From: an uncultured Dehalococcoidales bacterium
GTDB taxonomy: Bacteria; Chloroflexota; Dehalococcoidia; Dehalococcoidales; UBA2162
Assembly (NCBI GenBank): GCA_964543495.1
Contig: CAZIYN010000001.1
Span: 1 to 55,775 of the forward strand
DNA length: 55,775 nt
Direction of reading: 5' to 3'
The notes under the pieces are model-generated. The model was given only the letters and a program-made list of their open reading frames with translations, was not told the origin of the DNA and ran no database searches. The translations under genes and the position numbers were made by a program. Within the stretch, counting starts at the first letter, position 1. Each line of letters starts with the position of its first letter. Of this stretch, positions 11,181 to 28,750 are shown piece by piece.

Positions 11181-11199
11181 GATAAATAATGTCTATTAT

Positions 11200-11430
11200 T
11201 TAGTAACCGGTGGCGCCGGCGGCTTTACCTGATCCCTTGCAGAGCTCACACTGCTCAAAGTAAACAGAGTTATCTGATCCTTCACCTTCCTTCTCAAGAT
11301 TACCGCTACCGTTGCATGCCGGGCAGGGTATTGACTTTAGTTTGCTTAGCTCTGTGCTCCCGGCACTAATCTGGCCTTCGAGCAGGGCAATCCGGCGTCG
11401 TATCTCTAAGACTTGTTCTTCAATAGTCAT
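11200..11430 (-). CDS. DnaJ-type CxxCxGxG zinc-finger mini-protein
   Basis: CPACNGSG..(19)..CELCKGSG after a coiled-coil. ATGA coupling at 11430. Confidence 0.6.
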   Translation of the reverse strand: MTIEEQVLEIRRRIALLEGQISAGSTELSKLKSIPCPACNGSGNLEKEGEGSDNSVYFEQCELCKGSGKAAGATGY

Positions 11431-11645
11431 TCCGTGGGTTCCTCCTTCCTGTTTTTCTTCGGCTTGACGGGCTTGAACTCGGTGCAGTGACCGTTCCGGA
11501 GCGCCGGCTCTTTCTTGTTCTTGACGATGAAGTCGCAATAGTGCGGCCGGCCCATCCGGAGCTCGCGCTGGTCGGCGAGCTGGCACCTGGCGCAGTACTT
11601 CTTCTTGAACTCGAGGGTCCGCTTGTTCTGTTTACTCATCACCAC
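11427..11645 (-). CDS. Basic Cys/His mini-protein, 72 aa
   Basis: CARC..HYC..HC. Minus-strand tiling ORF. Confidence 0.55.
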   Translation of the reverse strand: MVMSKQNKRTLEFKKKYCARCQLADQRELRMGRPHYCDFIVKNKKEPALRNGHCTEFKPVKPKKNRKEEPTE

Positions 11646-12836: not shown

Positions 12837-12856
12837 AAGATAAGAGTCATTATCTA
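12837..12856 (-). promoter_or_regulatory. Intercistronic 20-bp palindrome, copy 1
   Basis: Minus strand reads AGATAA-tgactc-TTATCTTGCAGGAGG-N7-ATG. The distal arm contains the upstream stop codon. Confidence 0.6.
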
Positions 12857-13221
12857 TCCTGAGTATTAAAGGGAACGCTCAATTCCTCGCCGAGCAGCCG
12901 GATGAATTTATTGTCGGCTTCGATTTCTTTATCGCGGGCCTCCCGGGCGAGTCGGTCCTCTTCCTGGTTCTTCAGCATATTGCGAACGATTTCTTCGCCT
13001 TTCTCTTTCACAGCGGCGGTGAATTCTTCTTCAGTGTAGTCTTTGATAGGGATAGCCACACCGAAACCGGTGATGGAACCTATCCCTTCTTTGCACTCAA
13101 GGTAAACCATGAGTTTTTTTTCTGGGACTTTTAAAAGTGGAGAGAGACTACCGCGGGGGTCGGGTTCATGGATACTGATAAATCCGACTTCCACCTCATA
13201 ATCGAGTAGCTGTATTTTCAT
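12850..13221 (-). CDS. Hypothetical protein, 123 aa
   Basis: Minus-strand tiling ORF. Confidence 0.6.
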   Translation of the reverse strand: MKIQLLDYEVEVGFISIHEPDPRGSLSPLLKVPEKKLMVYLECKEGIGSITGFGVAIPIKDYTEEEFTAAVKEKGEEIVRNMLKNQEEDRLAREARDKEIEADNKFIRLLGEELSVPFNTQDR

Positions 13222-13242
13222 ATTTACCTCCTTTTTTGTTGG

Positions 13243-13392
13243 CTATTCCTCGGGTTCATAATATATCCAGGCGGTATCACCCTCTTTTGCGTCCGGGATC
13301 GCTACTGGGAATATATTGCCTGTGTAATCCCGCCACTGGATATTTCCATGACCGTCTTTATATGCTGTTATTCGACATAATTTTATTAGCAT
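13243..13392 (-). CDS. Hypothetical mini-protein, 49 aa
   Basis: AAGGAGG SD before ATG 13392. The ORF-track version extends to GTG 13524 through a low-complexity N-terminus. Confidence 0.45.
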   Translation of the reverse strand: MLIKLCRITAYKDGHGNIQWRDYTGNIFPVAIPDAKEGDTAWIYYEPEE

Positions 13393-13520
13393 CTTTACCT
13401 CCTTATCTTTTGCCGGGAGGGAAGCCTCATTATGGGTCACCCCACTCCCTCTTTCATCCGCTCCCCGTCTGCAGGAGTGTTTACCTGCCGACTTCATGGG
13501 GTAATACGGCGCCCGGCGAA

Positions 13521-13763
13521 TCACTGTATAATTTTGACGGCAGTCAGGTAATCTTTATTTGGATCTTCCTTTTCGTTTTTCCATAAGTTTGATATTGTTC
13601 TGAAGATAGATTTCCTTCTATGGATTACCGTGTGGGAGGATGACCATTCGTCGGCTATCTCTTCCGGGATTAATTTATCTATTACGAGGGCTTTGAGAAT
13701 AACCACCTTAACGTTATCGGCGAAGTCTTCTAATTCATCTTTGGTTAGGTTATAGACTTCCAT
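13521..13763 (-). CDS. Hypothetical protein, 80 aa
   Basis: AGGAGG SD follows palindrome copy 2. Confidence 0.55.
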   Translation of the reverse strand: MEVYNLTKDELEDFADNVKVVILKALVIDKLIPEEIADEWSSSHTVIHRRKSIFRTISNLWKNEKEDPNKDYLTAVKIIQ

Positions 13764-13778
13764 GCTTACCTCCTTTGA

Positions 13779-13798
13779 AAGATAACATCACTTATCTT
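13779..13798 (-). promoter_or_regulatory. Intercistronic 20-bp palindrome, copy 2
   Basis: AAGATAA-gtgatg-TTATCTTTCAAAGGAGG-N5-ATG. Confidence 0.6.
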
Positions 13799-14438
13799 TC
13801 GTTTTTTCTGTCTCGAGCCGCGTCAGCTCCACCAAGGTTTCGAACCAGGCTATTTTAACGGTGCTTGTCCATTCTTCGTTCCAGGTAGGGAGTGCCGGCA
13901 GCCCTTTCTCGCGGGGCTGAGCTGGGGGCTTCTCCGCGGCGGGCTTTTTGTCGGCAGGGCTCGGTGCCTTTTTAGGAGCGGTGGGTTTTGCTCTGCTTTT
14001 GGTCTTCCACTCGGGCATAGTAAAACGCTGGGGCATCCACCTGGCTCTGATCACGGACCATGCCGAGGAGCCTATTTCCCACCTCTTTGTCATTGAGTTT
14101 GTTGCCAGCTCCTGCTCTTCCGGAGGTAATAGGTTAAACTCGGCGAGTATCCGCTCTTTATTCTCTTCGTAATAATCGTGTATCAATGAATTACGTTGCC
14201 GTGGATTCAAGCCTGTTGTGTCAGGTTTCGGCGGGATAGGATCGGCTGGGCTATTTTCTGCGGTCTTACTAACGTTTTCGGACATTTCAGTAACCTCCCT
14301 ACTCGTTTCTTTAACAGTATTCAGCGGTCTGATAACGTTTCCACACCAGTAGCATTTCTCTCCTGGGGAAAAGTCGCTTTCTATCTGCTTCCCGCAATTC
14401 GGGCATTCGATTAGCTTAAAGCGGGACGGACTGGTCAT
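13788..14438 (-). CDS. N-terminal zinc-ribbon protein, 216 aa
   Basis: CPNCGK..(15)..CYWCG, followed by a Pro/Lys-rich linker. Confidence 0.6.
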   Translation of the reverse strand: MTSPSRFKLIECPNCGKQIESDFSPGEKCYWCGNVIRPLNTVKETSREVTEMSENVSKTAENSPADPIPPKPDTTGLNPRQRNSLIHDYYEENKERILAEFNLLPPEEQELATNSMTKRWEIGSSAWSVIRARWMPQRFTMPEWKTKSRAKPTAPKKAPSPADKKPAAEKPPAQPREKGLPALPTWNEEWTSTVKIAWFETLVELTRLETEKTKDK

Positions 14439-14447
14439 ATTAACTCC

Positions 14448-14630
14448 CTACGCTTCGCTATTTTTAATTTTGATAATTTCGCTTTTGGGGATATAAGGTA
14501 TGCCATCCATATCTACGAAAGATATCTGGCACTTCTTTATCCACCGGTAGATGGTGGACTTCGGTTTACCTAATTCGGTTGCCGCTGTTGGCACGGTGAC
14601 GTAATCTTCCGGATTAATTCTGATTGTCAA
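14448..14630 (-). CDS. Excisionase/MerR-type HTH protein
   Basis: VTVPTAATELGKPKSTIYRWIKK is a typical Xis-family HTH. TTG start with a GGAGAGG SD. Confidence 0.65.
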   Translation of the reverse strand: MTIRINPEDYVTVPTAATELGKPKSTIYRWIKKCQISFVDMDGIPYIPKSEIIKIKNSEA

Positions 14631-14657
14631 TTTCCTCTCCAGAGAATGCGTGCAACT

Positions 14658-14686
14658 ATAGTAGCAATCTCTGTCGGGGATGTCAA
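14658..14686 (-). promoter_or_regulatory. Sigma70-like promoter TTGACA-N17-TACTAT
   Basis: Read on the minus strand. About 20-nt leader to TTG 14630. Confidence 0.65.
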
Positions 14687-14851
14687 TAGCGGCGACAAAA
14701 ATTTTTAATAACTGTGCCGTCAGGCGTGGGGTTGTGAAAAGGTATTAAAAAGAGGTGATTTTTCGAGGCTAAGACGCGCTGAGAGCCAAAATTAGGGGGT
14801 GGAGCGGCTTTGGCAGACCGATTCTACCTTGGAGAACTGAGCGTGGGGGTT

Positions 14852-15088
14852 TTATTGGTCCAGAAAAGCATGGGGATATGCTTGGACAAGTTTCTCGCTG
14901 CCGGTTTCCTTCTTCGCAATACCTACAAGTTTTTTAAAGGGGTTCGGTCGCTTTACTCCGGAGAGCTGGTTTAAAGTGACCCAGAGAGCGGCGTGGTAGC
15001 CGAACATCAGGAATTTATATCCGGCGAGGGCTGCCCAGGCTTTCGCCTCTTCTTCGTAGAGTTTTTCAGCTAACTCGGTTTCTGTCAT
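14852..15088 (-). CDS. Hypothetical protein, 78 aa
   Basis: CAGGAGG SD. TAATG coupling at 15088. Confidence 0.55.
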   Translation of the reverse strand: MTETELAEKLYEEEAKAWAALAGYKFLMFGYHAALWVTLNQLSGVKRPNPFKKLVGIAKKETGSEKLVQAYPHAFLDQ

Positions 15089-15519
15089 TAATTCCTCCTG
15101 AATATCGGTTTTCTTGAGATACAGACTCCTCCTACTATTAATGGGGGATTCGAATAGCTGCAGCAGGGCATGCCAGTGCCGACGGCATCCGGGTCCGCGA
15201 ATAAACATCCGATACAATTACGGGTTTGGAAATATGGCAGCTCCTCTTCGGTCTTCTCGTCGATTTCTCTTTCCATGGCGTCGACCCGGGCCTCCAGGTC
15301 AAGAGGGACACCGTCTGTATCGAGCCCTTCGTTGAAAAAGGAATAGGTCTTCGATGCCTCGACGCAGTCCGGGTTGTCGTTGCAGTAGTGGACGTTCATT
15401 GTTCCGCAGTACTCCCCGTTTATTTGGAGCTGCGAGGAGCGGACGGATATCTTGTCATCGGGACGAACCCTACCACAGATATGGCAGGACCAGGTTAAAT
15501 CAATGAGCTTTTCTCCCAT
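15088..15519 (-). CDS. Cys-rich protein, 143 aa
   Basis: CHICG..YCND.PDC..CIGC..CC. Minus-strand tiling ORF. Confidence 0.6.
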   Translation of the reverse strand: MGEKLIDLTWSCHICGRVRPDDKISVRSSQLQINGEYCGTMNVHYCNDNPDCVEASKTYSFFNEGLDTDGVPLDLEARVDAMEREIDEKTEEELPYFQTRNCIGCLFADPDAVGTGMPCCSYSNPPLIVGGVCISRKPIFRRN

Positions 15520-15531
15520 GGTTACCTCCTA

Positions 15532-15795
15532 TTAGTACCAGGTAATGCAGGAGCCTTCTATGGTCATTCTGGTGAAATCGTAATCTCCGGCGGACATTTC
15601 CTCTGGAATGTATTCATATTCGTTGATTTTACCGTGAACGAGGTAGGCTGTTTCACCCATGGCGCCCACGAATACGATTGGCTCTTTATCGTCGTCGAGA
15701 AGCCTTTCGACTTTTCCTTTTACTTCCAACTCTATAAACCCATCGCTGTCAGGTCCGGAGCTTAGTATTTCGGGGAGGTCTTTGTAGTACTGCAT
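15532..15795 (-). CDS. Hypothetical protein, 87 aa
   Basis: ATG 15795 follows palindrome copy 3 and an AGGAGG SD. Confidence 0.55.
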   Translation of the reverse strand: MQYYKDLPEILSSGPDSDGFIELEVKGKVERLLDDDKEPIVFVGAMGETAYLVHGKINEYEYIPEEMSAGDYDFTRMTIEGSCITWY

Positions 15796-15811
15796 TGAAA
15801 ATCCTCCTTTC

Positions 15812-15831
15812 AAGATAATAGTTATTATTTT
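15812..15831 (-). promoter_or_regulatory. Intercistronic 20-bp palindrome, copy 3
   Basis: AAAATAA-taacta-TTATCTTGAAAGGAGG-N7-ATG. Confidence 0.6.
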
Positions 15832-16232
15832 TCGGCGGGCCTGAGAAATCTCCTGTGGACATTGAAAAAAGGACATCTCTTTTGGGCCTTGGCTACGGAC
15901 TTATTCGGCTTGCAAATTCCGCTCCATGCATAAGAGTCCGGAACCGTTCCACCACTTGGTAGCACGGGGTCATATCTACCATGGGTACAGTGCCAGTAAT
16001 TTTTATATCCCATACTTTCGGCTTCTGTATCCTCTTCCAGCTCGCTGCAGTTTTTACAGGTTTTTTCTACTAAAAGAGGGCAGTTATCGTTGACGTAGCA
16101 GTGCTCACCAGCTGGGATTTCAACGACGCAAGCGCTACAGAGATTTGCGACTATCCAGGAACAGGGGCCTTCATCTGTGATACACGGGTTATCATCGGTA
16201 CATCCGCAGATTTTACATTTTCTTTCTTGCAT
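15825..16232 (-). CDS. Cys-rich protein, 135 aa
   Basis: CKICGC..C..C..CSAC..C. Minus-strand tiling ORF. Confidence 0.6.
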   Translation of the reverse strand: MQERKCKICGCTDDNPCITDEGPCSWIVANLCSACVVEIPAGEHCYVNDNCPLLVEKTCKNCSELEEDTEAESMGYKNYWHCTHGRYDPVLPSGGTVPDSYAWSGICKPNKSVAKAQKRCPFFNVHRRFLRPAEK

Positions 16233-16416
16233 TTTTCTCCTTTCTTCGGGCTTCTACTTTTTCATAGCACGATAGGCACCGGGGTGGCAAGTAATCACGG
16301 CTGCCCTTGTAACTGAACTGGTATAGAGGGTATTCCCTCCACTCGGTAGTTCCCGGGACCGTGCCGGGCTGCCGGTATACGCCGGTCGGTTGTTTGCAGA
16401 TAGGGCATTTAAGCAT
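16213..16416 (-). CDS. Zinc-ribbon mini-protein, 67 aa
   Basis: MLKCPICKQ..(45)..CLSC. ATG 16416 overlaps the upstream stop by 8 nt. Confidence 0.5.
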   Translation of the reverse strand: MLKCPICKQPTGVYRQPGTVPGTTEWREYPLYQFSYKGSRDYLPPRCLSCYEKVEARRKEKNARKKM

Positions 16417-16681
16417 CGTACTTTTCGTCCCATCCCGCTTCAGCGAGCTGGCGGAGGGCCGTTCCCTCCGGAGCGATCTGTTCAATTATTCCCTGGGCGA
16501 TATCACGGGCTGTCTTCGAAGTCTCGCCGGTGTTTTCAGGATGCCTCAGGGCGAGCTGGAGCTGGCACATTACCGCCCATGCCGAGAGGGCGTCTGTGGC
16601 GAAGACAAAGGGTACACCGTTAAGGGCGGTAAGCTCTTCTGTAACCTGGGCTTTGAAGACCGGGTCGTCTAACGGGTCCAT
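16409..16681 (-). CDS. Hypothetical protein, 90 aa
   Basis: GAGGAGG SD before ATG 16681. Confidence 0.6.
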   Translation of the reverse strand: MDPLDDPVFKAQVTEELTALNGVPFVFATDALSAWAVMCQLQLALRHPENTGETSKTARDIAQGIIEQIAPEGTALRQLAEAGWDEKYDA

Positions 16682-16819
16682 CTATTCCTCCTCCTGTGTC
16701 TTCCAGGTGTAGCCCGGGGGCTCGTCGTAGCCGGCGACTATCCCTTCCTGGATCAGTTCGCCGATTCTCTTCAGAGCTTCTGGTTCCGGAGGGTCGTCGC
16801 AGTATATGATAATAACCAA
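16682..16819 (-). CDS. Mini-protein, 45 aa (below cutoff)
   Basis: AGGAGGG SD lies 6 nt before TTG 16819. The stop abuts the next ATG. Confidence 0.4.
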   Translation of the reverse strand: MVIIIYCDDPPEPEALKRIGELIQEGIVAGYDEPPGYTWKTQEEE

Positions 16820-16822
16820 TTT

Positions 16823-16990
16823 TTATCCCTCCTTTAAGGCTTCGACTATCTTTCTTGCTCTTATCGGTGCCTCGTTAAGTCTTGAGTAGTCCTTCAGGGC
16901 GATGTGGGCGACGCCTGGCATCATATCTTCCACGAGGTCGAGCAGGTTGTTGAAGGCATCGATGATTTCCTCGTCGGTTGGTCTTGCCAT
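16823..16990 (-). CDS. Mini-protein, 55 aa (below cutoff)
   Basis: AGGAGG SD before ATG 16990. MARPTDEEIIDAFNNLLDLVEDMMPGVAHIALKDY.. Confidence 0.5.
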   Translation of the reverse strand: MARPTDEEIIDAFNNLLDLVEDMMPGVAHIALKDYSRLNEAPIRARKIVEALKEG

Positions 16991-17012
16991 GGTATACCTC
17001 CTTTCATCTCAG

Positions 17013-17085
17013 AGCGGGAGGGGGGCTTCGAACCCCCATCCTTCTCGCTGGCAACGAGATGCTCTACCCGCTGAGCTTCTCCCGC
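17013..17085 (-). tRNA. tRNA-Gly (anticodon GCC), 73 nt, no encoded CCA
   Basis: The cloverleaf folds by hand: acceptor GCGGGAG/CTCCCGC, D arm GCTC/GAGC, anticodon arm TCTCG-TTGCCAG-CGAGA, T arm GGGGG-TTCGAAG-CCCCC. Bacterial-type. Confidence 0.9.
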
Positions 17086-17108
17086 AAAATAAGGTCCATT
17101 ATCTATCT

Positions 17109-17561
17109 TCAATTCCAGGGGGGCTCCATGTAGTCTTCCTGGAACATTTGCGCTGCCTTTTCACAGAGAACCATACCGGCGAGCTGGTTTGATTCATCCA
17201 CATCCGTCCATAGATATGAAAGGGCACGACTGACTGCTCTCCATGAATAATTTTCATCAACGCGGAGTTTTCGAATCAGGCCAGCATTAAGAGTGTCTAC
17301 CGATATAAAGCTCTTAAGATGTTCAATCGTTTCGTTACCTTTTTCTCGGAGGACTGTTAAATCTGATGGGGTGAGCTGTCGTAATCCTTCGACTTCCTTT
17401 CGGGCTTCTGGTTCGGTTCCTTCTTCTGAAAGGGCCATGTCCATAACTTCATAAGGGGTCTTTCCCCCACATGCTTCACGTATGACACGGTCCCAGGTGA
17501 CCATTGTTGCACCAGCTTCCTTCGATTGTCTTATAATTTCTTCGTCCATGGGGTCTAGCAC
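17109..17561 (-). CDS. Hypothetical protein, 150 aa
   Basis: AGGAGG lies 6 nt before GTG 17561. Sits between the two tRNAs. Confidence 0.6.
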   Translation of the reverse strand: MLDPMDEEIIRQSKEAGATMVTWDRVIREACGGKTPYEVMDMALSEEGTEPEARKEVEGLRQLTPSDLTVLREKGNETIEHLKSFISVDTLNAGLIRKLRVDENYSWRAVSRALSYLWTDVDESNQLAGMVLCEKAAQMFQEDYMEPPWN

Positions 17562-17577
17562 TGCGAACCTCCTTTAA

Positions 17578-17649
17578 TGGGGCTGCCGGGATTCGAACCC
17601 AGGCATGCTGGTTATGAGCCAGTCGTTCTAATCATTGAACTACAGCCCC
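17578..17649 (-). tRNA. tRNA-Met/Ile2 (anticodon CAT), 72 nt, no encoded CCA
   Basis: Acceptor GGGGCTG/CAGCCCC, D arm GTTC/GAAC, anticodon loop CTCATAA, T arm CTGGG-TTCGAAT-CCCGG. Not initiator-like. Confidence 0.9.
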
Positions 17650-17653
17650 CTGC

Positions 17654-17673
17654 AAGATAACGTAGATTATTTT
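17654..17673 (-). promoter_or_regulatory. Intercistronic 20-bp palindrome, copy 4 (abuts the tRNA-Met 5' end)
   Basis: AAAATAA-tctacg-TTATCTTGCAG is followed immediately by GGGGCTG, the tRNA +1 position. Confidence 0.6.
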
Positions 17674-17837
17674 TCTTCACCGATAGGGTTCCCGAAATGC
17701 AGGCCGATTGTAACGAGGAAAAGCCCCAGTGCAATCTGAAACCAACTCCCCTTCTCCCGTAGGGTCCATAGTCCAAGCACGCACATTTCCGCGTCATGCC
17801 ATGGCGTATTCACTTCATAGAAGTAAGAAACTTTCAT
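17667..17837 (-). CDS. Small membrane protein, 56 aa
   Basis: ATG 17837 follows GGGAGG. Hydrophobic stretch GSWFQIALGLFLVTIGL. Confidence 0.5.
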   Translation of the reverse strand: MKVSYFYEVNTPWHDAEMCVLGLWTLREKGSWFQIALGLFLVTIGLHFGNPIGEEK

Positions 17838-17850
17838 ATCTGCCTCCCAC

Positions 17851-17870
17851 AAGATAATTGTTTTTATTTT
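17851..17870 (-). promoter_or_regulatory. Intercistronic 20-bp palindrome, copy 5
   Basis: AAAATAA-aaacaa-TTATCTTGTGGGAGG-N5-ATG. Confidence 0.6.
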
Positions 17871-18076
17871 TTATCACGCATTCGCCAGAATGCGTGAGCT
17901 GCTATGGTTCCTCCTACTGATAAAGTTAAGAAAAGGTAAAAGGGGGAGACAAGCACGGTGAGTAAAATGGAGGAGATAACACAGACAAAAACACATATCG
18001 TGTATTCTCCCCAGGGTGAGATCAAATAACGGGGCGTATTAAGTATGCCTTTTAAGTACCATTTCCAGAATTCCAT
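17864..18076 (-). CDS. Two-TM membrane protein, 70 aa
   Basis: Two hydrophobic helices. GGGAGG SD. Confidence 0.6.
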   Translation of the reverse strand: MEFWKWYLKGILNTPRYLISPWGEYTICVFVCVISSILLTVLVSPFYLFLTLSVGGTIAAHAFWRMRDKK

Positions 18077-18092
18077 AGTTCTTACCTCCCGA

Positions 18093-18112
18093 AAGATAAT
18101 GCACCTTATCTT
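18093..18112 (-). promoter_or_regulatory. Intercistronic 20-bp palindrome, copy 6
   Basis: AAGATAA-ggtgca-TTATCTTTCGGGAGG-N9-ATG. Confidence 0.6.
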
Positions 18113-18115
18113 CCG

Positions 18116-18436
18116 TTATTCTTCTTCGATGGAGCCGGCGCGGACCTCGCAGCCGATCTCCTCGCATTTCTCTTTGATTTCTGCATGGACTTTCTGGGCC
18201 CGTTCGTAGATTTTATTGTCCTGCTCTTCGTTGATCTCCCAGATGTCTCCGCAGTATCTTTCGAGCCTTACCAACTGACCCTGTACTGTGTAGGAAGCGA
18301 TTACTGACAGGAGTTTGATATTCGGAGAGAAGCTGGAGTTCTTGAATAGATTGGTGATACGGACTATCTTCCGATCCGGGGTGTCCTTGGCGAGCTCCTC
18401 GAGGAATTCGCCAACGTCGTTGAATAAGACTTTCAT
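18116..18436 (-). CDS. Hypothetical protein, 106 aa
   Basis: Minus-strand tiling ORF. Confidence 0.6.
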   Translation of the reverse strand: MKVLFNDVGEFLEELAKDTPDRKIVRITNLFKNSSFSPNIKLLSVIASYTVQGQLVRLERYCGDIWEINEEQDNKIYERAQKVHAEIKEKCEEIGCEVRAGSIEEE

Positions 18437-18448
18437 ATTAACCTCCTT

Positions 18449-18652
18449 TCAAACTACGTTAATATTCCAGATATCGCTGCCGGCGTACTGCCCCAGGATA
18501 TTCTCGGCATCTTCGACCTTGGAGCGCTCGTGAAGTGCTTCATTGGTCACTCCGGTGGCCTGTTTGAAATAGAGCAGGGCGTCGATTCTGTTTTTATAGG
18601 CGGCCACTTCTTGGACCAGCCCCTGGTAAATGATGATAACGATATGAATCAT
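18449..18652 (-). CDS. Hypothetical protein, 67 aa
   Basis: GAGGAGG SD before ATG 18652. Confidence 0.5.
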   Translation of the reverse strand: MIHIVIIIYQGLVQEVAAYKNRIDALLYFKQATGVTNEALHERSKVEDAENILGQYAGSDIWNINVV

Positions 18653-18675
18653 GCCGGTACCTCCTCTTACTTCCA

Positions 18676-18855
18676 TTAAGCTATTTTGACATAAATGTAC
18701 TTTGCCTTAATTGATATTGATTCGCCTTGCGACAGAGGATGGCCCTTTCCCGCTTTAAGATCGTCGGCATTTGCTCCTACAAGCGCTATTGTAGAGTAGG
18801 GGTTGGTGTAAAAAATTTCATCACCTTCAATCAGCTCAACCTTATAAATAAGCAC
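18676..18855 (-). CDS. Hypothetical mini-protein, 59 aa (GTG start)
   Basis: GTG 18855 lies 5 nt after AGGAGG, which follows palindrome copy 7. The longer ORF-track N-terminus overlaps the DUF1643 gene. Confidence 0.5.
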   Translation of the reverse strand: MLIYKVELIEGDEIFYTNPYSTIALVGANADDLKAGKGHPLSQGESISIKAKYIYVKIA

Positions 18856-18870
18856 GTGAACCTCCTCTGC

Positions 18871-18890
18871 AAGATAAGAACAGTTATTTT
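18871..18890 (-). promoter_or_regulatory. Intercistronic 20-bp palindrome, copy 7
   Basis: AAAATAA-ctgttc-TTATCTTGCAGAGGAGG-N5-GTG. Confidence 0.6.
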
Positions 18891-19370
18891 TCATTGGAAG
18901 CTTTCCAGCTTCGAGTCCCCGGGAAGATAGAGGGGGTGCTTCGGATTGCCGCTTTTTGTCAAGCCGAAACAGTAGGGATGGCTGAGAAGCTGCCATACGG
19001 TGTGAACCCTCGATTCTCTCCAGGCAACCTTTTCGATGCCATCTCCCCATCCGCAGACAGTTAATTTTGATAATCCTACGGCCATCTGGATTGCCGGAAT
19101 GTTAGCAGGATGGAGTGCCGTCTTGAGTTTTAATTCTTCTGGATATGGGGTAACCTGGCTATAGAGATTACAGGCGTAAAGACCGCCGTACCCCCATTTC
19201 TGGGCGAAGTCGCATAAGCGGTGTATCGTTGGATCGTCCTCGACTTCATTAGCAGTAGAAGGGTTTAATCCGATAAAAAGCATCCGGGGCTCGCTATCCC
19301 AGAAATTCCATAGCAAAAAGCGATGGGTTCTGTCTTCATTCATCACCGCTCCTCTGAACTGGCTTATCAA
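18891..19370 (-). CDS. DUF1643 family protein (UDG-like fold family)
   Basis: HRFLLWNFW..MLFIGLNPSTANEVEDDPTIHRLCDFAQKWGYGGLYACNLY is the DUF1643 signature. Confidence 0.8.
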   Translation of the reverse strand: MISQFRGAVMNEDRTHRFLLWNFWDSEPRMLFIGLNPSTANEVEDDPTIHRLCDFAQKWGYGGLYACNLYSQVTPYPEELKLKTALHPANIPAIQMAVGLSKLTVCGWGDGIEKVAWRESRVHTVWQLLSHPYCFGLTKSGNPKHPLYLPGDSKLESFQ

Positions 19371-19384
19371 TTTATACCTCCTGC

Positions 19385-19404
19385 AAAATAATTGATATTA
19401 TGTT
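19385..19404 (-). promoter_or_regulatory. Intercistronic 20-bp palindrome, copy 8 (degenerate)
   Basis: AACATAA-tatcaa-TTATTTTGCAGGAGG-N6-TTG. Confidence 0.5.
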
Positions 19405-19644
19405 TTACTTCTTTTCCCAGTAGGGACATTCGTACTCCGGCTCGGCGAGCTCTTCGAGTCTCCAGACGTTAATGAATCCCCACCTGGCATACTCCTCGCG
19501 GAGATCCTCCTGCCCGTGCTCGGCGAGGTTTTCCATCATTTCTCTGCTCGAGCAGTTCACTCCGTCCTCGGAGTCACCCGGTGAAGGTGGATAGTCGATT
19601 TCGCCGTGCTTACAGGTACCGCACTGTTTTATGGCAGTTTTCAT
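19405..19644 (-). CDS. Cys-containing acidic protein, 79 aa
   Basis: CGTCKH..C..C. Minus-strand tiling ORF. Confidence 0.55.
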   Translation of the reverse strand: MKTAIKQCGTCKHGEIDYPPSPGDSEDGVNCSSREMMENLAEHGQEDLREEYARWGFINVWRLEELAEPEYECPYWEKK

Positions 19645-19668: not shown

Positions 19669-19824
19669 CTACTTGTGGTTAAGCGCTTTCCTGGCGACCC
19701 TCTCGACCCATTCGGTCAGGGTTTCGTCTTTCAGGGCGGCGTCTGCCTTTATCTGCTTCCAGAGCTCCGGATCGGCGTTCCTGAGATGCTGGGTTTTGGA
19801 AGTCTTTTCGGTTTCTGTAGTCAT
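19669..19824 (-). CDS. Ribbon-helix-helix (Arc/CopG-like) protein, 51 aa, leaderless (below cutoff)
   Basis: MTTETEKTSKTQHLRNADPELWKQIKADAALKDETLTEWVERVARKALNHK. The ATG lies 9 nt after the -10 element and there is no SD. Confidence 0.55.
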   Translation of the reverse strand: MTTETEKTSKTQHLRNADPELWKQIKADAALKDETLTEWVERVARKALNHK

Positions 19825-19833
19825 AGTGATACG

Positions 19834-19862
19834 AGTCTACCATGTATCACAAGTGTTGTCAA
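19834..19862 (-). promoter_or_regulatory. Sigma70-like promoter TTGACA-N17-TAGACT
   Basis: Read on the minus strand, immediately upstream of the RHH ORF. Confidence 0.6.
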
Positions 19863-20424: not shown

Positions 20425-21540
20425 TTATTCGTATTTCATCGGCATTATCAGCACTCTCGGGTGGTTGTGGCTGTGGAAGGCAATTGGAGCTGATTGTCCT
20501 GTCCAGGACAGGGTCATCAGCCCTTCCTTCCCGTTGAGGTAGTCAAGGATATACTTGGCATTGATGGCCAGCTTATTCGGAACCCCTTCGGCATTGAGAG
20601 TGCTGATTGAAGATTCTGCCCGAAGATCGCCGTCGCCGGCCCAGATGGTGGCCTGGCTGTCCTTAAAGTCCATCCGGACCATGCCGGCGCCCTCTGATGC
20701 CATGCTCTTGACCCGGTTGATGGCCACCTCGAGCTCCGGGGCATAGAAGCTGGCTTTAAGCACCGGCTCGTCTTTCGGTATGAGCTTCAGGAAGTCCGGG
20801 GGATTGCCCTGGATGAGCTTGACGATGGCCGTCAGCCCCCTGGCGAACCTGAACTGTATACCCTTCTCTCCGTCGACGGAAATGTTAACCATCTTCTTGG
20901 CGGTAAGAGCGGGTATCAGGGCATCGGTCGACAGGGCTGCCCGTGGTGATTTCTTCCACAGGTGCTCGAGGACGGGTATTGATTCCAGCGGCATCACCAG
21001 CGTGCGCTCTTCCGGGAACGAGCCATCCAGCTCGGTATCCGCCATCCGGAACCCGTCGCCGGCGACGGCCTTGATTTTCTCACCCAGCATGAGCGTTATA
21101 CCGTTAAGAACGGCCCGATCGCTTTCCTTGGCCGCGTATTTCCGGAGAGATGCAAGTCCCGGTATCAGGTTATCTCCGTTCAGGTCGGTCTCGGCTGCCG
21201 CGGCGAATTCCGGTACGGCGGGGAAGGTATCCGGGTCCTTGGTGGGGAAGTTGGCGCTGCCGCTCGACCATTTGAGTGACAGGCTCCCCTTCGAGCTCTT
21301 GAACTTGAGCTTTTCGGTCCCGGCTACATACTGCAGGACGTCCATAACCTTCTTGAAGGGAACCAGTGCCTCGATATCGACTTCGGGCAGGGGCATGACG
21401 ACCATGGTGTCCATGTCCGTCGCCACCGCCTTGCCGTCCTTAAGGAGGATACACTTCAGCACTTCGAGAGAAGGCTTCCCGGGTACCGCCGGTTTCAGCA
21501 GGTACATTATATCCCTGAATTTGGATACATATAATTCCAC
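20425..21540 (-). CDS. dnaN: DNA polymerase III beta sliding clamp
   Basis: 371 aa. PSLEVLKCILLKDGKAVATDMDTMVV resembles the TLPIL.nvLl..L.ltaTDle region of DnaN. C-terminus ends PRVLIMPMKYE. Confidence 0.75.
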   Translation of the reverse strand: MELYVSKFRDIMYLLKPAVPGKPSLEVLKCILLKDGKAVATDMDTMVVMPLPEVDIEALVPFKKVMDVLQYVAGTEKLKFKSSKGSLSLKWSSGSANFPTKDPDTFPAVPEFAAAAETDLNGDNLIPGLASLRKYAAKESDRAVLNGITLMLGEKIKAVAGDGFRMADTELDGSFPEERTLVMPLESIPVLEHLWKKSPRAALSTDALIPALTAKKMVNISVDGEKGIQFRFARGLTAIVKLIQGNPPDFLKLIPKDEPVLKASFYAPELEVAINRVKSMASEGAGMVRMDFKDSQATIWAGDGDLRAESSISTLNAEGVPNKLAINAKYILDYLNGKEGLMTLSWTGQSAPIAFHSHNHPRVLIMPMKYE

Positions 21541-21604: not shown

Positions 21605-22012
21605 TTAAAAGAAACTCGGCTGCTTATCGTCAGCCTTCGGCGTTGAATTCTTGGAGCGCTTGGAAGTCGATTTTGTCGCGGCCGGCTGGGGAGCCGGCGG
21701 TTCCGGCAGGTCGGCTTTCGGATATGTCGGGCTCTCGGCCCACTGCTTTTTGGCAGTCTCGACTATTTTCGGGACTCTCTTGAGAGCTGCCGCTAGGGTG
21801 CCCTTGAAGGTCTCGTACACCGGATCGCAGCCCGGGCTCTGGACACCGACCATGTAGTTTTTGCCCCTCGAGTTGATGACGATTTTCAGCTCGTCGAAAT
21901 TCTTCGGCTTCTCCGGCTCTTTGGGCTCTTCGGTTTCTGGAGCCGGTTCTTCAGCCTCTTCCTCTTCTACCTCTTCTTCGTTCTCTTCGACAGTGGTTTC
22001 TTCATCGTCCAT
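21605..22012 (-). CDS. Protein with hyper-acidic N-terminus, 135 aa
   Basis: MDDEETTVEENEEEVEEEEAEEPAPETEE.., then a folded-looking core. Confidence 0.6.
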   Translation of the reverse strand: MDDEETTVEENEEEVEEEEAEEPAPETEEPKEPEKPKNFDELKIVINSRGKNYMVGVQSPGCDPVYETFKGTLAAALKRVPKIVETAKKQWAESPTYPKADLPEPPAPQPAATKSTSKRSKNSTPKADDKQPSFF

Positions 22013-22850
22013 GGGCGTACCTCCTTTCTCTATTATTTTTCGATGTTAGCTCTTTGACTTTTATTCCGAGCATTCGGGCGACCGTTACCGGTTCTGCCGG
22101 CACCACGTGAAGGGTACCGGCTTCCATATCGATATATGCTCCCATCCAGGCTAACTCGCCCTTCATGAGCTTCTCGACGAATTCCAGTACCAGGAATCCC
22201 ATAGCCTGGTTGATCAGCGGGCTCTGCTCGTCCGCAATGACGGCTTCGGCACAGTCCTGCTCCGGCTGCCGTGTTTCCGGCGCCGGCGACAGTAGCCCCG
22301 AAAGCTGTATGGGGGGATACGGCAGCGCCGATACCGTGCCGGCTTTCTCATCGAAAGCTCCCGCCAGATCGGGGAAATGACGGGTATTTCCTATCAGGAC
22401 TTGTCCCGATGAATGACCGTTGCCGGCGTCTATCCACCAGGTAAGCCCGCCGAGGGACTCGGCTATATCCCGCCTGGCGGCGGCGTTGTCGACGCAGCTA
22501 ATTAACAGGCTGTAAATAACGGTCGAGTGCATGCCGCCGCCCATATTCTCCTCGAACATGTCGCCCATGTAGGGGTAGACGCTATACTGGATGGGGCGCC
22601 GGTACTGCCGCGCGAGGCGCTCTGCCAAAACCTGGCTCTTGAACTTACCGATATCCTCTTCGAAGAAATGCTGCCGAAGCAGGTTATGCTGCTCGACCCT
22701 GTCATGGTCGATTAAAAGCAGCTCATACTCCTGTCGGTTTATCAGCAGCCGGCAGAGACCTTCAGCGACGAAACCACCTGTCCCACCACAGCCGACCAGA
22801 GCTATCTTTTTCTTCGCGAAATTCTGCTCTGCAGAGATCCGGAAACTCAT
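22002..22850 (-). CDS. ThiF/MoeB-type E1-like adenylyltransferase (PRTRC ThiF-like)
   Basis: KIALVGCGGTGG Rossmann motif, LIDHDRVEQHNLLRQ, SCVDNAAARRDI. AGGAGG SD. Confidence 0.85.
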   Translation of the reverse strand: MSFRISAEQNFAKKKIALVGCGGTGGFVAEGLCRLLINRQEYELLLIDHDRVEQHNLLRQHFFEEDIGKFKSQVLAERLARQYRRPIQYSVYPYMGDMFEENMGGGMHSTVIYSLLISCVDNAAARRDIAESLGGLTWWIDAGNGHSSGQVLIGNTRHFPDLAGAFDEKAGTVSALPYPPIQLSGLLSPAPETRQPEQDCAEAVIADEQSPLINQAMGFLVLEFVEKLMKGELAWMGAYIDMEAGTLHVVPAEPVTVARMLGIKVKELTSKNNRERRYAHGR

Positions 22851-23445
22851 ACTGGGTTATCACCTCCTCTTCAAGATATTCCTTGGCGCCTTCCAGGGCG
22901 CCGTCGAAGACCTCCGACCATGAAAGGTCGTCGAAATAGCCGTATACGCCGATTCGCAGCCTGATGACCGGGGTTTTCGACAGGTTTCCGACTATTCCAT
23001 AGATCTTCAGACCCGTTTCGTCTTTATCATCCGTATAGCTGAAGCCTATTTTCATCTCGCCGTGGGAGTGCATCTCCAGCACGATTTTATCGCCGGCTTC
23101 ATAAACGATGCCACCTCCGGATTTATCCTGGACCGGGACGTAGAACTTGTATCCGAAGTCTCCCTTCACGGCGACATAATGCTCTATCCGGGTGTCTGTC
23201 ATAAATACGTCGAGGGCGAGGTCGAAGAACCTCCGCGGGATGCTCCCGTAGAGGAGATTCAGCTTCTTATCGATCGGCGGCAGGCCGCGGACCTCGCAGC
23301 GAGCCACCGGTATCCTGGCTGAAATCAGCTTGTTCTCGGCCTCGATGAAGAGACCGTTGCCGGCCAGGATATAGTCGTAGAAGATACCCCTATCGCCGGC
23401 GAGTCCCTCGCCGGTGTTTATCAGATATCCCACCTGTTTTATCAT
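22762..23445 (-). CDS. JAB/JAMM metallopeptidase (PRTRC protein A-like)
   Basis: EMHSHGEMKIGFSYTD matches HxHx7Sx2D. The last 89 nt overlap the E1 gene out of frame. Confidence 0.8.
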   Translation of the reverse strand: MIKQVGYLINTGEGLAGDRGIFYDYILAGNGLFIEAENKLISARIPVARCEVRGLPPIDKKLNLLYGSIPRRFFDLALDVFMTDTRIEHYVAVKGDFGYKFYVPVQDKSGGGIVYEAGDKIVLEMHSHGEMKIGFSYTDDKDETGLKIYGIVGNLSKTPVIRLRIGVYGYFDDLSWSEVFDGALEGAKEYLEEEVITQYEFPDLCRAEFREEKDSSGRLWWDRWFRR

Positions 23446-24128
23446 GCCAGCTCCATCATCATCAGGTCGCTTATTGTCCCGTGCTTGACCAGGTCGTTCT
23501 TCGGGAACGCCTTTTTACCATCGAGGTGAGCCCAGAGGTAAGCGACATTCTTCGGAAACATCCGAGACCGGTTGTGAAGGTCGGCCGTCTCCGTGAAAAA
23601 CGACACGAAGAAGGAATGGGGGATATCGGCTGCCCTCTCCGGATACCGGTGATTGCCCGGGCAGGACCTGCCGCTGTCAAAAATATTGCAGAGCGGCGCC
23701 TTGAAGACCGGGTCCCGCTCTTTCGTCGGTTTCTTTTTCACCGCGTATACCCAGGGCGGTTTGCCCGGCGAGCATAGGAATATGAGCCCGGGCAGGGGTA
23801 TGGTGAAGCGTTTCGGCGGCTTGCCGAGTTCCTTCTGCAGGGCGAGGGTTCGAATCTTCGGTTCCGTGTAGATGGCGAAGAACGGGCCCGCTCTGGTGTT
23901 CTCCCACCAAAGGGTATTCGCCGGCAGGAGTCCGGTACCGAATGACAGCTCGTTGGCCAGTGCCTGAGCCACGTCGAAAGCCGAGACTATCCTAGTGGTC
24001 GTTGTTTCCTCGCCGAAGAAGGTTAAAACGACGGCCTGGTGATGGAAATCCAGCCTGGCTCTCAGCGGATCCGGCGGTATGTTCAGCTCCTCCGGTATCG
24101 CCCATCGATGGGCTGTCCCTATTACCAT
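23442..24128 (-). CDS. E2/UBC-like protein candidate (PRTRC protein B-like)
   Basis: APLCNIFDSGRSCPGNH resembles the UBC hPN(I/V)..G.IC active-site segment. Size and position match PRTRC-B. Confidence 0.55.
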   Translation of the reverse strand: MVIGTAHRWAIPEELNIPPDPLRARLDFHHQAVVLTFFGEETTTTRIVSAFDVAQALANELSFGTGLLPANTLWWENTRAGPFFAIYTEPKIRTLALQKELGKPPKRFTIPLPGLIFLCSPGKPPWVYAVKKKPTKERDPVFKAPLCNIFDSGRSCPGNHRYPERAADIPHSFFVSFFTETADLHNRSRMFPKNVAYLWAHLDGKKAFPKNDLVKHGTISDLMMMELA

Positions 24129-24138
24129 ATGAACCTCC

Positions 24139-24432
24139 TCAATATTCTTCCGGGAAAAGGACGGTAGTTACCGACCTGTCGGCCTCGGTGATTATCCAGA
24201 TTTTCGGGTTCAGCTCGTAGGCTGAGAAAATCCGGAGATTCCCCTCTTTGACTGCCAGGTCGTTTTCCTTCTTGTCGTCTTCCGACATATCTCCCCAGTC
24301 GCCGTTGTAATGGCGATCGAGGCTCTTATTGACGGCAATCCTGAATTGGTCGTCGTCTTCCATCCTTTCCAGGATTCCGGGCGTGACGACCAGCTGTCCG
24401 CCAGGGAATTTACTTCCTACTATTCCGACCAT
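24139..24432 (-). CDS. Conserved small plasmid/phage-type protein, 97 aa
   Basis: GDWGDMSEDDKKEN..IWIITEADRSVTTVLFPEEY recalls a family seen on mobile elements. Function unknown and family name not recalled. Confidence 0.6.
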   Translation of the reverse strand: MVGIVGSKFPGGQLVVTPGILERMEDDDQFRIAVNKSLDRHYNGDWGDMSEDDKKENDLAVKEGNLRIFSAYELNPKIWIITEADRSVTTVLFPEEY

Positions 24433-24444
24433 AATAGACCTCCT

Positions 24445-25392
24445 TTATGTCAGTACTTGGGCGTTTTCATCCAAAGGCAGAGGCATTTGCTCTTTCGGTA
24501 TTATTTCCGTTCCTTTCTCCGCGATTTTAATATCCAGGATAAACTCGAGCAGTTCCTTGAAGCGGGGCTTCAGGTCTTCCTCGAGCCATTCATAGGCTTT
24601 TGTCATCCGTTCATGGTATTCTCTTACGCGGGGCCACTGCTCGGTAAGGTTATCGACGTAGTAGCGGCTCCAGTCCACCATCTCGTAGCCGTCTTCGTAA
24701 TTTGCGTCGAGCTGCCAGCAGTCGGTGGAAGAGAATATCCAGTCGACGACCGCGTTAATCATATCGTAGTCGGTATTGTCCAGCTTCGGGTAGAGCTCGT
24801 GATATCTGAAGCCCCCTTCCGGGATGTGCGATATCAAGCCTTCCCCGACAAGGTCGGCAGCCGCTTCGAGTATCGGTATCCTGGCATCATCCTCTCCCCA
24901 TGGTGGTTCTAACAGGGCTATTATGAGGATAAAACCATCCCTCGATGTGGGCGCCTCGTGGTAGTCGGAGAAGCTGAGACCCATGAGGTTGATGGGTATG
25001 TCCCGGGTAAAGTCCCCCAGAGGAGTCTCGTCGTAGATATAGGTGAAACTGTCGGCCAGCGGGAAGTACCGGTTGGCGAAGTGGTGCATGAACATCCGTA
25101 TCTTATCGGTGTCGCTCATCTGGGCCATGATTGCCGTCTCGTGCTCCGGAAGATATTCTCTTATCAGATCGAGGAACTCTGCGACTGACTCGTAGTTGAG
25201 CAGCCGGTCGATGACGTGGGCGAGGGACGGGGGGCCGGCGATGAGCTTGTGGGCGAGCATGGCGAGCGGAAATACCGGCTCCAGCTCGTCTTCTATCACG
25301 AGAGGCTCTCCCGTCATCATCCGCTGCCTGGCAACGGCCTGCTCGTTAAGGAAACGCAGCGTCTCTAGATCATACATCGTCCTCTTCCTCAT
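24445..25392 (-). CDS. Hypothetical protein, 315 aa (positional equivalent of PRTRC protein F)
   Basis: Minus-strand tiling ORF inside the Ubl cassette. Alternative start at 25377. Confidence 0.6.
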   Translation of the reverse strand: MRKRTMYDLETLRFLNEQAVARQRMMTGEPLVIEDELEPVFPLAMLAHKLIAGPPSLAHVIDRLLNYESVAEFLDLIREYLPEHETAIMAQMSDTDKIRMFMHHFANRYFPLADSFTYIYDETPLGDFTRDIPINLMGLSFSDYHEAPTSRDGFILIIALLEPPWGEDDARIPILEAAADLVGEGLISHIPEGGFRYHELYPKLDNTDYDMINAVVDWIFSSTDCWQLDANYEDGYEMVDWSRYYVDNLTEQWPRVREYHERMTKAYEWLEEDLKPRFKELLEFILDIKIAEKGTEIIPKEQMPLPLDENAQVLT

Positions 25393-25624
25393 CTTTTGCC
25401 GCGGCCATTCTCTTCAGGGAGTCGACTGAAACCATGGTATGGCTGCCGTACATCTTGGCTTCCGCGAGGGCGCGGTTGACTTCCGGCTGGATATTCGCCA
25501 GCCCTTCGTAGTCCACCTCGCCGTCGACGGTGTATTTATTCGCCAGCTCGATAATGAGGAGGCTCTTTTCGGGCACCCTGCCCAGGGCTGTAACGACCCT
25601 GTCGATTTGTTCCGAATCTTTCAT
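25370..25624 (-). CDS. Hypothetical acidic protein, 84 aa
   Basis: TAATG-coupled to the Ubl gene. Confidence 0.6.
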   Translation of the reverse strand: MKDSEQIDRVVTALGRVPEKSLLIIELANKYTVDGEVDYEGLANIQPEVNRALAEAKMYGSHTMVSVDSLKRMAAAKDEEEDDV

Positions 25625-25815
25625 TACCCGCCCTTCGTTCCGACCCGCTTCTTGAACTCGTAGATGGTGTCTTCGCCGCGGGTACTTTCCTTGATTTCGG
25701 CGTTAGCCAGCTCGGGGAAGAATGAAGTCATGGACTGCCTGACTTCTTCCGGCGTGCTGGCGGGGTCCGGGTCCGGGAATTCTCTGCCGTCGTAGACGAA
25801 AATTCTCTTGGTCAT
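25624..25815 (-). CDS. Ubiquitin-like beta-grasp protein ending in Gly-Gly (PRTRC protein C-like)
   Basis: MTKRIFVYDGREFPDPDPASTPEEVRQSMTSFFPELANAEI..IYEFKKRVGTKGG followed directly by the stop. Matches the recalled PRTRC-C pattern R.F.Y.G..LPDP..s.eeVr..yPEl..A.i..Y.F...vGTKG. Confidence 0.7.
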   Translation of the reverse strand: MTKRIFVYDGREFPDPDPASTPEEVRQSMTSFFPELANAEIKESTRGEDTIYEFKKRVGTKGG

Positions 25816-28568: not shown

Positions 28569-28750
28569 ATTATGACCTGAAAGTGCAATCCGCTTTCAGT
28601 CCGTATCTGGTCGTGAAGTGAGTTCAGATACCTTCACCTATTCGCTGGAATGACCTTATCGGCTCGGCTGTCATATATAAGGAAACCGAGTTCGGGAAAC
28701 CGAGCCTATCGGGTATTTTTTAACGTGCTACAAGTGATACAAGTATCATC

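Follow-up and report, generated by a model that had tools for sequence, protein, structure and literature searches.

A recurrent 20-bp palindrome at gene boundaries of a novel temperate phage genome, a candidate DNA site for a dimeric phage protein

We describe here a 20-base palindrome that is present in 12 copies in a 55,775-nucleotide stretch of DNA (the window; contig CAZIYN010000001.1, from an uncultured Dehalococcoidales bacterium), which is the complete genome of a novel temperate phage family. Ten copies form an array within the intergenic gaps of two small-gene operons, and the other two are variants associated with promoters. The palindrome is a real and strongly non-random cis element that is conserved across the phage family. 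We propose, tentatively and with a little less than even weight, that it is the DNA binding site of a putative dimeric phage protein, functioning as an operator and roadblock and also as a cassette boundary. According to this proposal the palindrome would be a cis-acting double-stranded DNA site read by a dimeric phage-encoded protein; the copies at two sigma-70-type promoters would act as operators (28780 abutting the -35 box, and 33264 lying over the -10/+1 region), the ten operon-internal copies would be roadblock or silencing sites before individual genes and both tRNAs, in the manner of Cluster A stoperators, and the sites would double as break points for the gain, loss, and swapping of gene cassettes.

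The consensus sequence is (T)GC-AAGATAA-N6-TTATCTT-GCA with an invariant core of ATAA-N6-TTAT, and the layout is 7-6-7, a 20-bp dyad with 7-bp arms and a spacer that is always 6 bp long and not conserved in sequence. Across the nine copies within the interval 12837-19404, which was the subject of a preliminary description, positions A2, A4-A7, T14-T17, T19, and T20 are invariant, and GC(A/G) directly follows the proximal arm in six. Because the arms are conserved in sequence and the spacer is fixed at 6 bp but variable in sequence, the geometry is that expected of a two-fold symmetric protein site. The abundance of the motif far exceeds chance expectation: when up to two mismatches are allowed, AARATAA-N6-TTATCTT has 29 strand-matches where 0.63 would be expected, and none of 100 shuffles yields as many; for the core ATAA-N6-TTAT there are 11 occurrences compared with an expectation of 0.53, and none of 300 shuffles has more than four. 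All ten copies listed in the preliminary description are present exactly where it placed them, but its total of ten was too low, as the copies at 17086-17105 and 11183-11202 had been overlooked.

Placement of the ten array copies is as regular as their sequence, and each fills the space from a stop codon to the following Shine-Dalgarno sequence or tRNA. The upstream stop is an in-frame TAA at arm positions 5-7 in four copies (12837, 15812, 17654, and 17851), a TGA in the spacer at 13779, and the first three bases of the copy at 11183; in the remainder it lies 0-3 nt upstream, and in several copies the distal arm does overlap or abut the stop codon, as originally reported. The proximal arm is 2-4 nt from an AGGAGG-like Shine-Dalgarno sequence in all seven copies of the interval that precede protein genes, a close placement that had been recognized, with a spacing of 3-4 nt that was too narrow. 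Before the two tRNAs, 0-4 nt separate the copy from the 5' end, and of two earlier statements about the tRNA-Met copy, that it sits exactly at the 5' end and that it ends 4 nt before base +1 (17649), only the second is accurate. The copy at 19385 is followed by GCAGGAGG and the TTG start at 19370 of a DUF1643 gene, that at 18871 by GCAGAGGAGG and a GTG start at 18855, and that at 11183 directly by an ATG at 11180 without a Shine-Dalgarno sequence; the 18093 copy is upstream of a gene for a 70-residue membrane-like protein (17864-18076). Sites are confined to small-gene early or accessory operons, and the motif scan of the window reveals no copy in the structural half of the genome. No -35/-10 pair was predicted over the window within or beside the array copies, no terminator call or GC-rich stem with a U-tract is found at any copy, and Rfam matched only the tRNAs in the window and no family at the palindrome. 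Readings of the motif as a DnaA box, a Bacteroidetes -7 motif, a terminator, or a member of an Rfam family were ruled out by inspection, terminator prediction, or Rfam.

Related phages, whose contigs (designated by L numbers) were reached through homologues of the clamp, RHH, and DUF1643 proteins, carry either this palindrome or another one at comparable positions. Identity of the backbone genes among these phages is 45-80%, and 50-60% is typical of the relatives that share the architecture; judging from the contigs compared, the architecture is a family trait whereas the palindrome sequence is not fixed. We distinguish type W, the palindrome of the window, type L3, AAGTATTC-N6-GAATACTT, and a third type, CGTATAAC-N4-GTTATACG. 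L003 has approximately 11 copies of AAGTATTC-N6-GAATAC(T/C)(T), located 3-7 nt before the Shine-Dalgarno sequences of most small genes downstream of the clamp gene and preceding 11 of the 13 genes between 12374 and 16525. The L3 type is also used by L008/L009, L255, and L269, the last two of which have window-type sites too, and in L269 both types lie in tandem before the DUF1643 gene. The C3/T18 variant of the 19385 copy likewise precedes the DUF1643 homologue in L269, and in L257 the DUF1643 gene is flanked by the third type, with the ATAA-N6-TTAT core retained. In L051, L048, and L019, window-type sites followed by GCA and a Shine-Dalgarno sequence precede unrelated genes, and the L048 arms are extended to TGC...GCA in a 10-6-10 layout. 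No such repeats are present in the contigs L002, L004, L005, and L006. Pattern scans of metagenomes and genomes yielded mostly chance singletons, with L019, L048, and L051 the real arrays among the matches listed, and a scan of one genome per species gave only single copies in unrelated taxa among the matches listed. In IMG/VR, motif patterns and helicase and RHH queries gave nothing useful, the L3-type pattern gave chance single matches only, and the DUF1643 query identified one unrelated phage, L001.

The remaining two copies are the promoter-associated variants. The copy at 28780 touches a -35 box, as the preliminary description had it, and abuts the minus-strand promoter TTGACA-17 nt-TTTAAT, whose -10 is extended by a TG; the conserved leftward replication/ubiquitin-like operon (171-residue protein gene, Prok_Ub-E2-JAB-ThiF, and clamp) has this predicted promoter at its head, and the promoter is itself conserved in L002-L005, L008, L249, and L254. 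The copy at 33264 overlaps the expected -10/+1 region downstream of a TTGACA at 33302-33307. The tail TCGATATAT is indeed common to both variants, on the plus strand at 28780 and the minus strand at 33264, with 15 of 16 positions identical, and their noncoding regions share nothing beyond the motif and this tail. The two do not represent attL and attR, a reading that is ruled out by the closed circular form of the contig, which has a 55-bp terminal repeat. In L003 and L008, the sequence GAATAC, which is the right arm of their own palindrome, directly abuts the -35 box of the promoter orthologous to 28751-28779; neither palindrome type is present at the orthologous promoter of the array-less L002, L004, L005, L249, and L254. 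The occurrence of two palindrome types at the same spot beside one orthologous promoter is the main reason for ranking the DNA-binding model first, as it is hard to explain by an RNA element or a selfish repeat, and it is what an operator with a changed specificity would look like. We also note a GC-rich and apparently structured leader of approximately 115 nt (33136-33260, minus strand) that separates the 33264 palindrome from the Shine-Dalgarno sequence of gene 32947-33135; this leader has no match in Rfam and could be a regulatory RNA leader.

Coordinates of the palindromes, tRNAs, and predicted promoters in the window. Palindromes are written as distal arm, spacer, and proximal arm.
Feature	Start	End	Strand	Sequence	Context
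Palindrome	11183	11202	-	TAAATAA-tagaca-TTATTTA (TAAATAAtagacaTTATTTA)	first three bases are the stop of ORF 11200-11586
Palindrome	12837	12856	-	TAGATAA-tgactc-TTATCTT	TAA stop in distal arm; followed by GCAGGAGG and ATG at 12822
Palindrome	13779	13798	-	AAGATAA-gtgatg-TTATCTT (perfect arms)	TGA stop in spacer; before gene 13521-13763
Promoter of second array operon (predicted, sigma-70-type)	14658	14686	-	TTGACA-17-TACTAT	first gene encodes HTH_17
Palindrome	15812	15831	-	AAAATAA-taacta-TTATCTT	TAA stop in distal arm; before gene 15532-15795
tRNA-Gly (GCC)	17012	17085	-		ARAGORN and Rfam agree on start 17085
Palindrome	17086	17105	-	TAGATAA-tggacc-TTATTTT (TAGATAAtggaccTTATTTT)	abuts +1 of tRNA-Gly (17085)
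tRNA-Met (CAT)	17578	17649	-		ARAGORN, Rfam
Palindrome	17654	17673	-	AAAATAA-tctacg-TTATCTT	TAA stop in distal arm; ends 4 nt before tRNA-Met +1
Palindrome	17851	17870	-	AAAATAA-aaacaa-TTATCTT	TAA stop in distal arm; before gene 17667-17837
Palindrome	18093	18112	-	AAGATAA-ggtgca-TTATCTT (perfect arms)	3 nt after stop of ORF 18116-18436
Palindrome	18871	18890	-	AAAATAA-ctgttc-TTATCTT	abuts TGA stop of DUF1643 gene (18891-19370)
Palindrome	19385	19404	-	AACATAA-tatcaa-TTATTTT	abuts TAA stop of ORF 19405-19644
Promoter of first array operon (predicted, sigma-70-type)	19834	19862	-	TTGACA-17-TAGACT	operon with the leaderless RHH gene
Promoter (predicted from sequence, sigma-70-type)	28751	28779	-	TTGACA-17 nt-TTTAAT	extended -10 TG
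Palindrome, promoter-associated variant	28780	28799		AAAATAA-gataca-TTATCTA (minus-strand reading)	abuts -35 box; tail TCGATATAT on plus strand
Palindrome, promoter-associated variant	33264	33283	-	AAAGTAA-taaatg-TTATCTT	tail TCGATATAT; starts 18 nt after TTGACA (33302-33307)

The palindrome could alternatively operate at the level of RNA, as an mRNA hairpin, possibly protein-stabilized, that constitutes a processing site or a 5'/3' stability element setting the expression of individual cistrons and releasing the tRNAs. The RNase III sites between early genes of T7 and SP82 and the REP hairpins within operons are comparable cases. All ten array copies are in transcribed intergenic gaps close before a Shine-Dalgarno sequence or tRNA, and the relatives maintain the palindromic character with other sequences at the same position, which looks like covariation. 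Against this, only two of the nine copies of the interval are significantly more stable than shuffles when folded as RNA (13779, -9.2 kcal/mol with z = -4.2; and 18093, -11.3 kcal/mol with z = -4.95), and six fold at 0 to -2.3 kcal/mol, no better than shuffled sequence. The minimum free energy of the 17654 copy is 0 kcal/mol, folding gives no stable hairpin for the 17851 copy, and pair 3-18 is mismatched in five of the nine, as A.C in four and as C.U in 19385. Because folding is weak and the arm bases are nearly invariant, it is sequence rather than structure that is kept in the window genome, and arm conservation within and between genomes is beyond what structure requires. The half-site at the -35 box in L003 and L008 cannot form a hairpin, and the lack of an Rfam family, U-tract, or terminator call at the sites also argues against this model. 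We therefore regard an RNA-level function, including the RNA processing site entertained in the preliminary description, as unlikely, but as an alternative to be kept in view. Two hairpins of another kind are seen in L008 (233-262 and 14254-14283), each downstream of a palindrome, where a second hairpin, CAACAA-taaaggagt-TTTGTTG, immediately ahead of an ATG, carries the Shine-Dalgarno sequence in its loop; from their sequence these may be translational control elements.

The suggestion that the palindrome is the core of a phage-specific promoter fares worse. With transcription starting at the GCA that follows the proximal arm, every cassette would have a start of its own and tRNA-Gly would have a mature 5' end, which accords with the 0-4 nt spacing to the tRNAs and with GC(A/G) after the arm in six of nine copies, and 20 bp resembles the length of promoters for single-subunit RNA polymerases. 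No RNA polymerase or sigma factor was detected, however; the largest ORFs (519, 514, and 862 residues) have no Pfam or PHROG match and no RNA polymerase family was found, the 862-residue ORF having been compared with PHROGs only. A promoter need not be palindromic, its central six bases are not conserved here, the Shine-Dalgarno sequence would be a mere 2-4 nt from the 5' end, and the 28780 copy is beside a canonical -35/-10 promoter rather than in its place. We consider this model highly improbable.

The genes separated by the palindromes differ strikingly from phage to phage. Array genes are almost all unrelated between the window, L003, L008, and L255, with three cross-phage matches among approximately 60 array genes, and yet the site alleles recur. 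Spacers TCGGAG, TGGCAG, TCCCAA, TATGCA, CACAAA, and TACGAA are found in L003, L008, L255, and L269 with their order largely preserved; TCTACG is common to the window (before tRNA-Met) and L269 (after DUF1643), together with an identical distal arm; and CATTTA is shared by L255, L269, and the 33264 copy of the window read on the plus strand. In L003 (14675-14955), gene 14711-14929, a homologue of window gene 17864-18076, lies between two L3-type palindromes with the same spacer, CACAGA, that are identical at 19 of 20 positions as direct repeats. In L008 (15139-15497), a gene for a 94-residue protein lies between the two parts of a split L3-type site (AAGTATTC-CTATCG / gene / CTATCG-GAATACTT); an 11-bp inverted repeat, AGGGARGTGCA, is present further inward, and the arrangement resembles an insertion whose target-site duplication is the spacer itself. 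In L001 (9959-10534), a DUF1643 homologue (62% identical) is enclosed by a 32-nt inverted repeat (TATATATGGTAAGTATCCC...GGGATACTTACCTTATATA), beyond which there is a further AT-rich palindrome. All spacers within the window differ, and a search of the window for split or same-spacer sites found none. No other DNA is conserved within this hypervariable region, and the sites therefore also serve as break points for cassette gain, loss, and swapping, a behavior that fits either a dedicated recombinase or short-homology recombination at the only conserved DNA and does not discriminate between the two.

These observations raise the question of whether recombination is the primary function, with the palindromes being core sites for a tyrosine recombinase (the phage integrase, 30969-31802, or host Xer) and same-spacer sites exchanging cassettes. 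Two inverted arms around a 6-bp spacer match the geometry of tyrosine recombinase core sites, in which the crossover spacer is 6-8 bp long, and dif has the same inner core, ATAA-N6-TTAT. Such a system would account for the L003 gene between same-spacer sites, the gene in the split CTATCG site of L008, the inverted repeat flanking the L001 DUF1643 homologue, and the recurrence of site alleles, largely in order, among nearly all-unrelated genes. The dif and pdif sites of Xer recombination, including the pdif modules of Acinetobacter plasmids, similarly have a 6-bp spacer, inner ATAA/TTAT sequences, and small modules between sites; dif arms are 11 bp and different for XerC and XerD, and the site orientation alternates. 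The palindrome array has neither 11-bp XerC/XerD-distinct arms nor alternating orientation, and all of its genes are in one orientation. Because the window spacers all differ, intragenomic recombination would be blocked in the window, which shows no recombination footprint, and array-less relatives encode integrases too. The att junctions of integrated L005, L254, and L006 are at a different, GC-rich hairpin unlike the palindrome, and a pattern of this kind would also arise as a by-product of short-homology recombination wherever 20-30 bp are conserved. We regard recombination as the primary function as quite unlikely, somewhat more so than an RNA-level role. A bolder version, and an improbable one, is that the palindromes are heterospecific recombination sites whose shared arms are read by the small Xer-like integrase and whose 6-bp spacer is position-specific. 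If this were true, only same-spacer sites in a co-infecting relative or a cassette circle would recombine, giving precise position-addressed exchange, and the array would be a natural counterpart of recombinase-mediated cassette exchange, an integron-like system on a phage. With regard to integration itself, we note that the relatives join host DNA at a terminator-like hairpin, TCGGGAcc-acaaa-tCCCGA (L005 13440-13480, L254 5170-5215, and L006 9370-9400), and that inversion of the hairpin center between L005 and L254 suggests integration within a host terminator hairpin.

It is also conceivable that the palindrome is a neutral or selfish REP- or MITE-like repeat that has spread into the gaps between stop codons and Shine-Dalgarno sequences with no function for the phage. 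Its placement would be automatic if a 20-bp element inserts into gaps of 2-8 nt, and the same alleles are found beside unrelated genes in different phages. However, allele order is largely collinear in L003, L008, and L269, and this suggests shared descent rather than transposition; an arbitrary repeat would also not be expected in two types at the same position by the -35 box of one orthologous promoter. REP and BIME elements have hundreds of copies in the host chromosome, whereas the one-genome-per-species matches listed for the palindrome are single copies in unrelated taxa, and no REP-associated (RAYT) transposase is found among the ORFs scanned. We judge a selfish origin to be improbable as well.

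Of the three interpretations offered in the preliminary description, an operator for a dimeric protein is thus the best supported, but the proteins it named as binders are not. Homologues of the RHH protein (19669-19824) with the same predicted strand residues are present in L249 and L254, both of which lack a palindrome half-site, and a homologue of the Xis-like HTH_17 protein is encoded by the array-less L002. The RHH strand residues are TQQL in L3-type relatives and TQHL in the window, which is a weak hint only. A second dyad, GTGATAC (19844-19850)-N11-GTATCAC (19826-19832), brackets the -10 of the RHH promoter and differs from the palindrome, and a related dyad, GATAC-tt-GTATC, is at 28736-28747, just after the -10 of the promoter at 28751-28779. 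From its sequence and position the GTGATAC dyad is probably the operator of another regulator, perhaps RHH, and it is the likelier RHH operator because it is located in the RHH gene's own promoter and its half-sites recur after the 28751-28779 -10.

Several observations weigh against a DNA site for a dimeric protein. No cI/Cro-like protein was detected in Pfam and PHROG scans of approximately 50 window ORFs and a cognate binder was not found, and neither the RHH nor the HTH_17 proteins track the palindrome sites. The L3 and L257 palindrome types form RNA hairpins of -6.7 to -9.6 kcal/mol, as an RNA-level element would. L255 and L269 contain both palindrome types, in tandem in L269, so that either two factors or one tolerant factor would be required. 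Among aligned sites, AAAATAA...TTATCTT outnumbers its mirror image by seven to one, an asymmetry of the arms that would not be expected of a symmetric DNA site, except through common descent of the copies. The tight placement relative to stop codons, Shine-Dalgarno sequences, and tRNAs is equally natural for an RNA-level element, and it also follows trivially from genome compaction. This notwithstanding, our preferred reading is that the palindrome would be bound by a protein encoded by the phage and that occupancy within the operons would impede transcription.

The genomic context is that of a temperate phage. An identical 55-bp repeat is present at both window ends (1-55 and 55721-55775), and we therefore take the window as a closed circular (or terminally redundant) complete genome of approximately 55.7 kb. 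Nearly all genes are on the minus strand, and they include those for a small tyrosine integrase (30969-31802), a sliding clamp (20425-21540), an HNH nuclease, and a PAPS reductase, together with two tRNAs and a ThiF/E2/JAB/ubiquitin-like operon. Most window proteins have no family match in the Pfam and PHROG scans, and blastn of the region against GenBank phages revealed similarity only to tRNA-Gly. Two clamp homologues are named by their sources as coming from Dehalococcoidales metagenome-assembled genomes, and others are from subsurface metagenomes; several of their contigs are 50-60 kb with the same gene order as the window, and some are integrated beside host genes. The closed circle, the integrase, the few database matches, and the related 50-60 kb contigs, some integrated, are the grounds for assigning the genome to a novel temperate phage family, whose hosts, inferred from the source names of clamp homologues only, are probably Dehalococcoidia. 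The minus-strand ubiquitin-like operon (22002-25815) encodes a prokaryotic ubiquitin-like protein (25624-25815), an uncharacterized 315-residue protein, and E2-like (23442-24128), JAB-like (22762-23445), and ThiF/E1-like (22002-22850) proteins, with the sliding clamp gene just downstream; this order is kept in all relatives fetched, from whose gene tables the Pfam labels are taken. Elsewhere, ORF 53501-53956 contains approximately 11 tandem copies of a 15-bp unit, TTCTTCTGCCGGCGG, at 53720-53891, giving a pentapeptide-periodic repeat, and its product is a probable structural protein.

The palindrome belongs to no single known family, being symmetric, without a promoter or terminator, and having short arms and a fixed spacer, although there are several informative precedents. 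By analogy, the closest working model would be the stoperators of Cluster A mycobacteriophages, which are bound by a known repressor (gp71 in L5); these are 13-bp asymmetric sites that number approximately 24-36 per genome, occur on both arms, and follow the direction of transcription, and motif and repressor change together (PMC6550527). In both systems a temperate phage repeats one short site many times within its transcribed regions, for the most part in narrow gaps where one gene meets the next, the site is found again at promoters (lytic for the stoperators, and predicted here at 28780 and 33264), and the motif differs between related phages, there along with the immunity system. The differences are that the site here is a 20-bp palindrome in 12 copies restricted to small-gene operons, with the binder not found.

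In form, the closest elements are the dyad of Cluster O mycobacteriophages and the ESAS of Cluster K, whose functions are still unverified (PMC12699233). The Cluster O element is a 17-bp palindrome, TGTTCGG-N3-CCGAACA, of function not known (PMC4351075). It shares 7-bp inverted arms, a non-conserved center, and a preference for positions between or at the start of small operon genes, and it is present in tens of copies in genomes where gene insertions and deletions are bounded by short repeats (PMC4351075). Its spacer is 3 bp rather than 6 bp, roughly one in three of the Corndog copies is intragenic, and no fixed relation to Shine-Dalgarno sequences or tRNAs is reported for it (PMC4351075). 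The Cluster K SAS/ESAS elements combine an inverted repeat with a start-associated motif, and the consensus differs between subclusters (PMC3203893). As with the palindrome, the ESAS inverted repeat is immediately upstream of a Shine-Dalgarno-containing motif at a subset of genes, but its arms are 17 bp and imperfect with a spacer of 4-13 bp and a better conserved left arm, whereas the palindrome combines arms of 7-10 bp with a constant 6-bp spacer and is also found ahead of tRNAs and promoters. The SAS consensus, GGGATAGGAGCCC, is absent at the palindrome sites.

The closest parallel in evolutionary behavior is with the PeSL cassettes of T4-type phages, in which a sigma-70 early promoter and a terminator stem-loop lie between the ORFans of hyperplastic regions (PMC2839356, PMC4122927). 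In both, short conserved elements separate ORFans, and insertions, deletions, and replacements are bounded by them, although the palindrome itself has no -35/-10 pair and no terminator. Several phage groups, Cluster O, Cluster K, and the T4-type PeSL among them, are known to have repeated short dyads where genes adjoin, and outside the Cluster A stoperators these are unexplained. The uncultivated phages described here provide a natural comparison set, in which genomes of one backbone have W sites, L3 sites, sites of both types, sites of a third type, or no sites, and single sites can be traced across genomes while the intervening genes turn over. Which protein reads the sites, and whether the sites merely mark or drive recombination in the accessory regions, thereby become directly testable.

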